Positions 4,028 to 4,085 of a DNA stretch of 64,000 bases are shown here, piece after piece. A program made the position numbers and the translations under genes. The stretch covers positions 7,192,001-7,256,000 of the forward strand of contig OZ024754.1 of assembly GCA_964016885.1 (NCBI GenBank). The letters run 5' to 3'. How positions within the stretch are numbered: position 1 is the stretch's first letter; the number at the start of each line of letters is the position of its first letter. The DNA comes from Eledone cirrhosa (lineage: Eukaryota). The notes beneath the pieces were generated by a model that saw only the letters and a list, made by a program, of their open reading frames with translations, did no database searches and was not told the DNA's origin.

Positions 4028-4085
4028 ATACTATGATCATTTCAATGACCGGGTTCCGTATGAATCCGGTGATGTCATCAGGTAT
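4028..4085 (-). ncRNA. Type I hammerhead ribozyme motif (palindromic stem III AUGAUCAU)
   Basis: Minus strand: AUAC-CUGAUGA-CAUCACCGG..CCGGUCAUU-GAA-AUGAUCAU-A-GUAU; stem I AUAC/GUAU; predicted cleavage after AUA. Confidence 0.75.

Follow-up and report, generated by a model that had tools for sequence, protein, structure and literature searches.

Minimal hammerhead ribozymes have been described in the pseudo-LTRs of metazoan Penelope-like elements (PLEs) (Cervera & De la Peña 2014, PMC4209133; review PMC6765202), so that palindromic dimer-type hammerheads in PLEs are already published and our main claim adds nothing new to them. The published >80% consensus has an extra nucleotide after A9 together with a G10.1-C11.1 pair, with listed exceptions, and in the alignment the Marsupenaeus and Saccoglossus(2) rows are also without the extra nucleotide (PMC4209133). 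PLE hammerheads with a U3-A8 core, inverted copies and opposite-strand pairs 100-700 bp apart have been described (PMC4209133, PMC8557442), as has a PLE tail extension of 30-40 bp (PMC8557442, PMC11167929). In biochemical tests, the Schistosoma minimal hammerhead showed no cleavage as a monomer and only low cleavage as a dimer or trimer (PMC4209133), while that of the anole Poseidon element was cleaved only with its own protein and cleavage was dispensable for insertion in vitro (PMC11167929). In the case of the axolotl hammerhead, which has a helix III of 2 bp plus a tetraloop, 22% monomer cleavage was reported and the dimer performed much better (PMC7229834). The in vivo role of palindromic PLE hammerheads is described as still unknown (PMC7761336).

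We examined 16 hammerhead-like sites in the window, that is, the whole 64,000-nt stretch of DNA analysed here, which is AT-rich (GC 0.326), dense in simple repeats and without any long coding frame of normal composition. Its repeats are of a kind suggestive of an animal resembling an octopus. The reading we hold with good confidence is that these are type I minimal hammerheads with a palindromic stem III, carried on short repeats that are probably 5'-truncated PLE 3' ends and whose parent copies would pair as a double hammerhead. The motifs, and the repeats and pairs they belong to, are as follows.

3777-3818, minus strand: second copy of the ACCGGU family, decayed (site 3816), core UUAAUAA / AAA
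3975-4187, minus strand: family A repeat fragment with hammerhead, fixed 3' end at ~3975, 5'-truncated, flanked on both sides by (TA)n
4028-4085, minus strand: minimal hammerhead of family A with AUGAUCAU as stem III and a C×C mismatch in the fourth pair of stem II
5514-5895, no strand assigned: two family B copies as a head-to-head inverted pair, 382 nt, 93.7% self-complementary
5562-5626, minus strand: family B hammerhead (5618) with AUAUGUAU as stem III, palindromic if G·U is allowed, and a C×C mismatch in the fourth pair of stem II
5783-5847, plus strand: family B hammerhead (5791), likewise with AUAUGUAU as stem III and C×C in the fourth stem II pair
19687-19722, plus strand: family F hammerhead (19691), with ACAU, non-palindromic and one transition off ACGU
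20323-20364, plus strand: family D motif, U3-A8 core, stem III ACCGGU, stem I of 2 bp, stem II decayed
24960-24999, minus strand: family E motif with ACAAUUGU as stem III, its stem I strong but its stem II weak (U·U plus 2 bp)
25245-25292, minus strand: diverged family B copy (25284), stem II intact with C×C, stem III broken
36618-36653, plus strand: classical minimal hammerhead of family F, with the extra A, a G10.1-C11.1 pair and ACGU as stem III
37067-37137, plus strand: family G hammerhead with AUGCGCAU as stem III, a C×U mismatch in the fourth pair of stem II, and a stem I resembling that of family B
40400-40455, plus strand: family C hammerhead (40405), stem III AUAUAUAU, one bulged A and then C×C at pair 4
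42936-43000, plus strand: family B hammerhead (42944) with AUAUGUAU as stem III; its stem II shows compensatory changes and has C×C at pair 4
43736-43813, minus strand: hammerhead of the monomer type (43808) whose stem III is a complete hairpin, with U·U at the stem II base, a counter-example to the palindrome
58012-58067, minus strand: decayed family C copy (58062) with core UUGAUGA and a disrupted stem I, but with AUAUAUAU as stem III and the C×C retained
63925-63979, plus strand: hammerhead of family C with AUAUAUAU as stem III and C×C in the fourth stem II pair

The family A motif at 4028-4085 is a type I hammerhead whose exact extent can be given on the minus strand: stem I (AUAC/GUAU) at 4085-4082/4031-4028, the core CUGAUGA at 4081-4075, a 31-nt stem II at 4074-4044, then GAA, AUGAUCAU at 4040-4033 and A17 at 4032. 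The first-pass annotation had reported seven such palindromes, after GAA, and all seven were confirmed behind a hammerhead core on the motif strand, those at 4033 and 24966 in minus-strand motifs and the other five in plus-strand motifs. A strict fold scan of the window, with a perfect core and at least 4 pairs in stem I, gave 11 matches with 10 convincing folds and included 5 of the 7 cited motifs; the remaining two are 20356 (U3-A8 core, stem I of 2 bp) and 24966 (stem II of U·U plus 2 bp). Ten of the 11 strict matches have the features of a type I hammerhead (CUGANGA core, GAAA, UH, junction open at stem I). The strict match at 12400, as well as matches allowing one mismatch, were taken as chance, and at site 35954 the motif is interrupted by a microsatellite. 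No Rfam hammerhead model matched the window at gathering score, and an Rfam E-value search gave only microsatellite artefacts and tRNA-like matches among the 150 of 252 matches listed.

It was found that folds with a 4-10 nt stem III segment number 9 in the window, compared with a mean of 0.30 and a maximum of 3 in 300 local dinucleotide shuffles. Perfect palindromes occupy the segment in 5/9 window folds against 3/91 chance folds (Fisher 8e-5), and with G·U allowed in 8/9 against 6/91 (Fisher 1e-7), although both P values overstate independence because the nine copies belong to only five families. When the inner four bases were left free, 7/7 window matches were self-complementary (4 perfect, 3 with G·U), compared with 5/121 perfect and 16/121 G·U-tolerant in a viral-contig chance control. 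The shuffles and the viral contigs thus bear out the view that the palindromes are hard to get by chance. That they are chance, or a by-product of AT-rich microsatellite DNA, has in its favour that AUAUAUAU is the commonest simple repeat in the window and that the 4-nt ACGU has just one free pair (28% by chance). We nevertheless regard this as very improbable: stem I fixes the segment length independently, only 3-4% of segments are perfect palindromes in the shuffle and viral controls, AUGAUCAU, AUGCGCAU, ACAAUUGU and ACCGGU are not simple repeats, and the shuffle folds, the family A reads and the matches with the inner four bases free already contradict it. There are counter-examples without a perfect palindrome that the earlier annotation did not include, namely ACAU at 19691, the three copies of AUAUGUAU, the broken stem III at 25284 and the hairpin at 43808. 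Between families B and G (AUAUGUAU and AUGCGCAU, respectively) the stem I strands are compatible, and the palindromes differ by double changes that keep self-complementarity. The motif set is a handy natural series of covarying palindromes.

The families had been called unrelated, which does not hold for A, B, C and G, as these share one architecture. Nine copies of these four families have a mismatch in the fourth pair of stem II (4081, 5618, 5791, 25284, 37075, 40405, 42944, 58062 and 63930), with 0/9 paired (C×C eight times, C×U once). At stem II positions 1-3 and 5-9, 70/72 cells are paired, with 2-4 letter combinations per position that covary; the stem II register of 40405 was set by hand, skipping one bulged A. 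The build common to the nine copies is thus no extra nucleotide after A9, three stem II positions, the mismatch at position 4 and at least 5 further pairs, and in 8/9 copies an AU-N4-AU segment is followed by A17. The stem II mismatch pattern gave 31 matches in viral contigs, 0 of which fold; the A/B/C/G architecture was not found in 344 kb of metagenome loci, and the pattern specific to families B and G gave 0 metagenome matches. A separate observation concerns the first stem II pair, where U·U replaces G-C at 10.1/11.1 in three families (4074/4044 as the family A-wide state, 24987/24977 and 43801/43762).

With the published PLE minimal hammerheads the window motifs share a type I core in which stem I is short, stem II long and helix III palindromic, as well as mostly solitary dispersed copies, opposite-strand pairs and the U3-A8 variant. 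The published alignment, too, contains longer palindromes flanked by AU (Drosophila willistoni, Aedes; PMC4209133). With respect to the consensus given there, family F has the extra nucleotide and G10.1-C11.1, families C and D only the G-C pair, and A, B and G neither; the difference that sets A, B, C and G apart is the absence of the extra nucleotide after A9 together with the kept C×C/C×U at pair 4. As a shared feature, this mismatch was not seen in the published 56-row alignment as machine-read from the PDF (PMC4209133). In the literature we found no report of a conserved stem II mismatch in PLE hammerheads, nor of octopus PLE hammerheads. Minimal hammerheads of PLEs are reportedly the subject of Lünse et al. 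(2017, RNA Biol 14:1499), known to us via a review, and that work may well cover the mismatch.

Other named systems resemble the motifs to a lesser extent. Anolis carolinensis Poseidon (PAc) likewise has a PLE hammerhead near a 3' end and a tail extension, although PAc was assayed biochemically and is protein-assisted (PMC11167929), while any cleavage by the window motifs is a prediction. Newt satellite 2 and the axolotl and invertebrate non-LTR retrozymes also have a weak palindromic helix III and dimers that cleave better, and axolotl HHR_Amex2 has U·U at the helix II base (PMC7229834). In contrast, theirs are tandem repeats of 150-450 bp with canonical loop 1-loop 2 contacts (PMC7229834), whereas the window motifs are solitary and 5'-truncated with a long stem II, and no head-to-tail tandem units of 150-450 bp with a hammerhead were found in the 64-kb window.

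To follow family A beyond the window, 3973-4187 was used as the reference at 80% likeness in four sequencing runs, of which X1 may be the source sample, X7 consists of raw reads with the same species label as X1 from a separate study, and X5 and X6 represent two other organisms. Matches were obtained in 1868 contigs of X1, 18 of X5 and 1 of X6, and in 2517 reads of X7; family A is thus high-copy and present in three organisms. The depth, which should not be read as a number of copies, is highest over the hammerhead, breaks off near 3975 and declines toward 4187 on the 5' side. Loose ends in all four runs reveal a shared ~30-nt extension beyond 3975 in some family A copies. In X1, 30 changes reach at least 3%, of which 28 can be placed, the other two being C>G and C>T. 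Those visible within 4028-4085 are at 4057 and 4058 (loop 2), 4073 (A-U to G·U), 4074 and 4037; at 4074, which is position 10.1, the change is private to this copy and the rest of family A has U·U at 10.1/11.1. The motif has 5 variable places in 58 compared with 16 in 76 for the upstream flank, a difference that is not significant (p 0.058). The two C×C bases vary by less than 3% in X1, X5 and X6, since all G>A changes are assigned to other positions and neither G>C nor G>T is among the changes listed. The change at 4037 lies in the palindrome centre and converts AUGAUCAU to AUGUUCAU with a central U·U, accounting for 4.9% of X1 depth and 318/1388 X7 reads (23%); the energy model suggests that the AUGUUCAU helix would still form weakly (-1.8 versus -7.2 kcal/mol). 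Family-wide conservation of the palindrome thus holds in the family A reads and contigs, but with the AUGUUCAU subfamily as a real exception.

A Penelope origin is likely on the basis of the arrangement of the copies, and selection on the palindrome would act in the active master elements. Family A has the Penelope-like combination of 5' truncation, a fixed 3' end and a tail, and family B copies 5618 and 42944 have the same 3' end as each other. An inverted 5'-truncated copy adjoining the 5' end, a PLE trait, is seen at 5514-5895 and again at the family D motif 20323-20364, where an inverted partner arm at 20074-20204 pairs with 20377-20508. Some window copies stop 50-120 nt upstream, at (TA)n, and (TA)n lies on both sides within 250 nt for 4/11 evaluable motifs, compared with a 10% background. 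PLE membership rests on this architecture (5' truncation, fixed 3' end with tail, inverted partners), because no protein remnant was detected upstream of the motifs: a PLE endonuclease profile, built from 135 of 184 proteins collected from metagenome loci, gave 0/16 in the window, while the same profile identified a GIY-YIG remnant within 400 nt upstream of 18/120 metagenome motifs. A search of the whole window with the 184 proteins gave nothing convincing; the best tblastn match (24806-24910, opposite strand, E 0.006 with 184 queries) was rejected as chance. Pfam searches of 140 non-repetitive window frames gave no RT or GIY-YIG match, and C2H2 zinc-finger fragments were the sole clear matches.

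Host-rich metagenome contigs provide a comparison set, in which the classical 4-nt motif was sought with its two inner bases left free. This gave 120 matches in 119 loci from 2 of 64 parts, comprising many copies of few families. Well-folded matches, with 3 or more pairs in stem I and 4 or more in stem II, number 54; perfect palindromes account for 41 of them (36 ACGU, 3 AAUU and 2 AUAU), 12 are one transition off ACGU and 1 is other; of the poorly folded matches 7/24 are palindromic, and 42 intermediate ones were left uncounted. In two metagenome loci a GIY-YIG frame ends ~95 nt upstream of a hammerhead. One of these frames, in locus L145:3322-4188 (minus strand), ends 95 nt upstream of a hammerhead with the 8-nt palindrome ACAUAUGU.

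The first-pass annotation regarded the palindrome as the hallmark of hammerheads that cleave as dimers, and expected tandem transcripts to cleave efficiently and isolated copies to be nearly silent. The hallmark agrees with the published PLE minimal hammerheads and with the energy model, in which every tested motif with a 6- or 8-nt palindrome is more stable as a double hammerhead than as two monomer hammerhead folds, by 11 to 20 kcal/mol; for the two 4-nt motifs the model does not favour the dimer. It requires the qualification that the 8-nt types can also fold as monomer hairpins. For the same reason the description of stem III as loop-less does not strictly apply to the 8-nt segments, which can close 2 bp plus a tetraloop. 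Efficient cleavage of tandem transcripts is an overstatement in view of published tests, namely the low dimer and trimer cleavage in Schistosoma and the protein dependence of Poseidon. Isolated copies of the 8-nt types need not be silent, because an axolotl helix III of the same 2-bp-plus-tetraloop form gave 22% monomer cleavage.

No same-family, same-strand tandem is present within the window, and the nearest such copies are ~17 kb apart. The sole close same-family pair, 5618/5791 of family B, is inverted head-to-head, and any transcript of 5514-5895 would therefore carry one sense and one antisense motif. Hammerheads from different families also lie near each other on one strand in four cases, 265-634 nt apart (3816/4081, 19691/20325, 24994/25284 and 36622/37075); their stem III segments do not match in any case (25284 and 3816 judged from sequence). 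A heterodimer of families B and C, whose stem III segments pair, was dropped because stem I swaps in the dimer and 5/10 of its pairs would be mismatched.

Other accounts of how the motifs work and are carried have to be set against the reading as dimer-type PLE hammerheads. It could be that the 8-nt types work partly as monomers, with the palindrome closing a 2-bp stem and tetraloop and dimer pairing merely raising the rate. In the 8-nt motifs the energy penalty for closing stem III within a monomer is just 1.4 to 2.9 kcal/mol, the axolotl hammerhead that gave measurable monomer cleavage combines 2 bp and a tetraloop with U·U at the helix II base (PMC7229834), and the family A subfamily with central U·U would keep such a hairpin intact. 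However, the inner four bases are unneeded in a monomer and yet are complementary in 7/7 matches, with double changes between families, and the dimer is favoured by 11 to 20 kcal/mol; we consider partial monomer function rather unlikely. Much the same standing is given to the proposal that the motif is mainly a protein-bound RNA pairing or packaging signal for the element RT, with cleavage secondary and protein-assisted. The published account of Poseidon is in line with it, in that protein is needed to cleave, catalytic mutants still insert in vitro and no RNA-seq ends occur at the site (PMC11167929), and the protein might bind at the fixed mismatch in stem II; the catalytic core is nevertheless kept across families, the U3-A8 swap included, and a signal role is at best a minority possibility. 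It is clearly unlikely that the motifs belong to non-autonomous short elements, retrozyme- or SINE-like and mobilised by PLEs, instead of truncated PLE ends. The copies are short and lack a coding remnant upstream, and a 2026 preprint ties animal retrozymes to PLEs (bioRxiv 2026.07.22.740005). Against this, tandem arrays with a unit of 150-400 bp are absent from the window, the copies have variable and not fixed 5' ends, and they extend just 50-120 nt upstream, too short to expect much ORF.

The reading as dimer-type hammerheads on truncated PLE ends is retained on the strength of what is directly observed: cores, stems, palindromes, high copy number, the fixed 3' end and head-to-head inverted copies. 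In an active parent element, stem I strands would be exchanged between two copies, whose palindromes would pair into one helix III; the resulting double hammerhead is predicted to cut weakly or with help from the element protein. The window copies, without a same-family tandem partner, are most likely inert relics. More speculatively, and with doubt prevailing on our part, families A, B, C and G may constitute an undescribed PLE hammerhead subclass, in which the fixed C×C/C×U would replace the missing loop 1-loop 2 contact or dock the element protein, and the family-specific 8-nt palindromes and swapped stem I would act as self-recognition codes, restricting a transcript to partners from its family or a sister family, so that B could pair with G but not with C. 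A cheap, testable handle on how these slow ribozymes activate without the usual tertiary contact is offered by the conserved mismatch in stem II.

The window also contains repeats and coding fragments of other kinds. The C2H2 zinc-finger coding fragments are located at 37236-37550 (minus strand) and 28504-28713 (plus strand). A dispersed SINE-like repeat with tRNA-like heads occurs at 21548-21605 (plus), 12196-12251 (minus), ~5950-6076 and 39814-39969, and long arrays at 45300-47500 and 53200-57700 consist of an ACC/AGT-type triplet satellite and a multi-kilobase (AT)n-rich tract. A further dispersed repeat of 110-150 nt is very abundant, being found at 36836-36945 and ~20 further places, with copies 85-95% alike.
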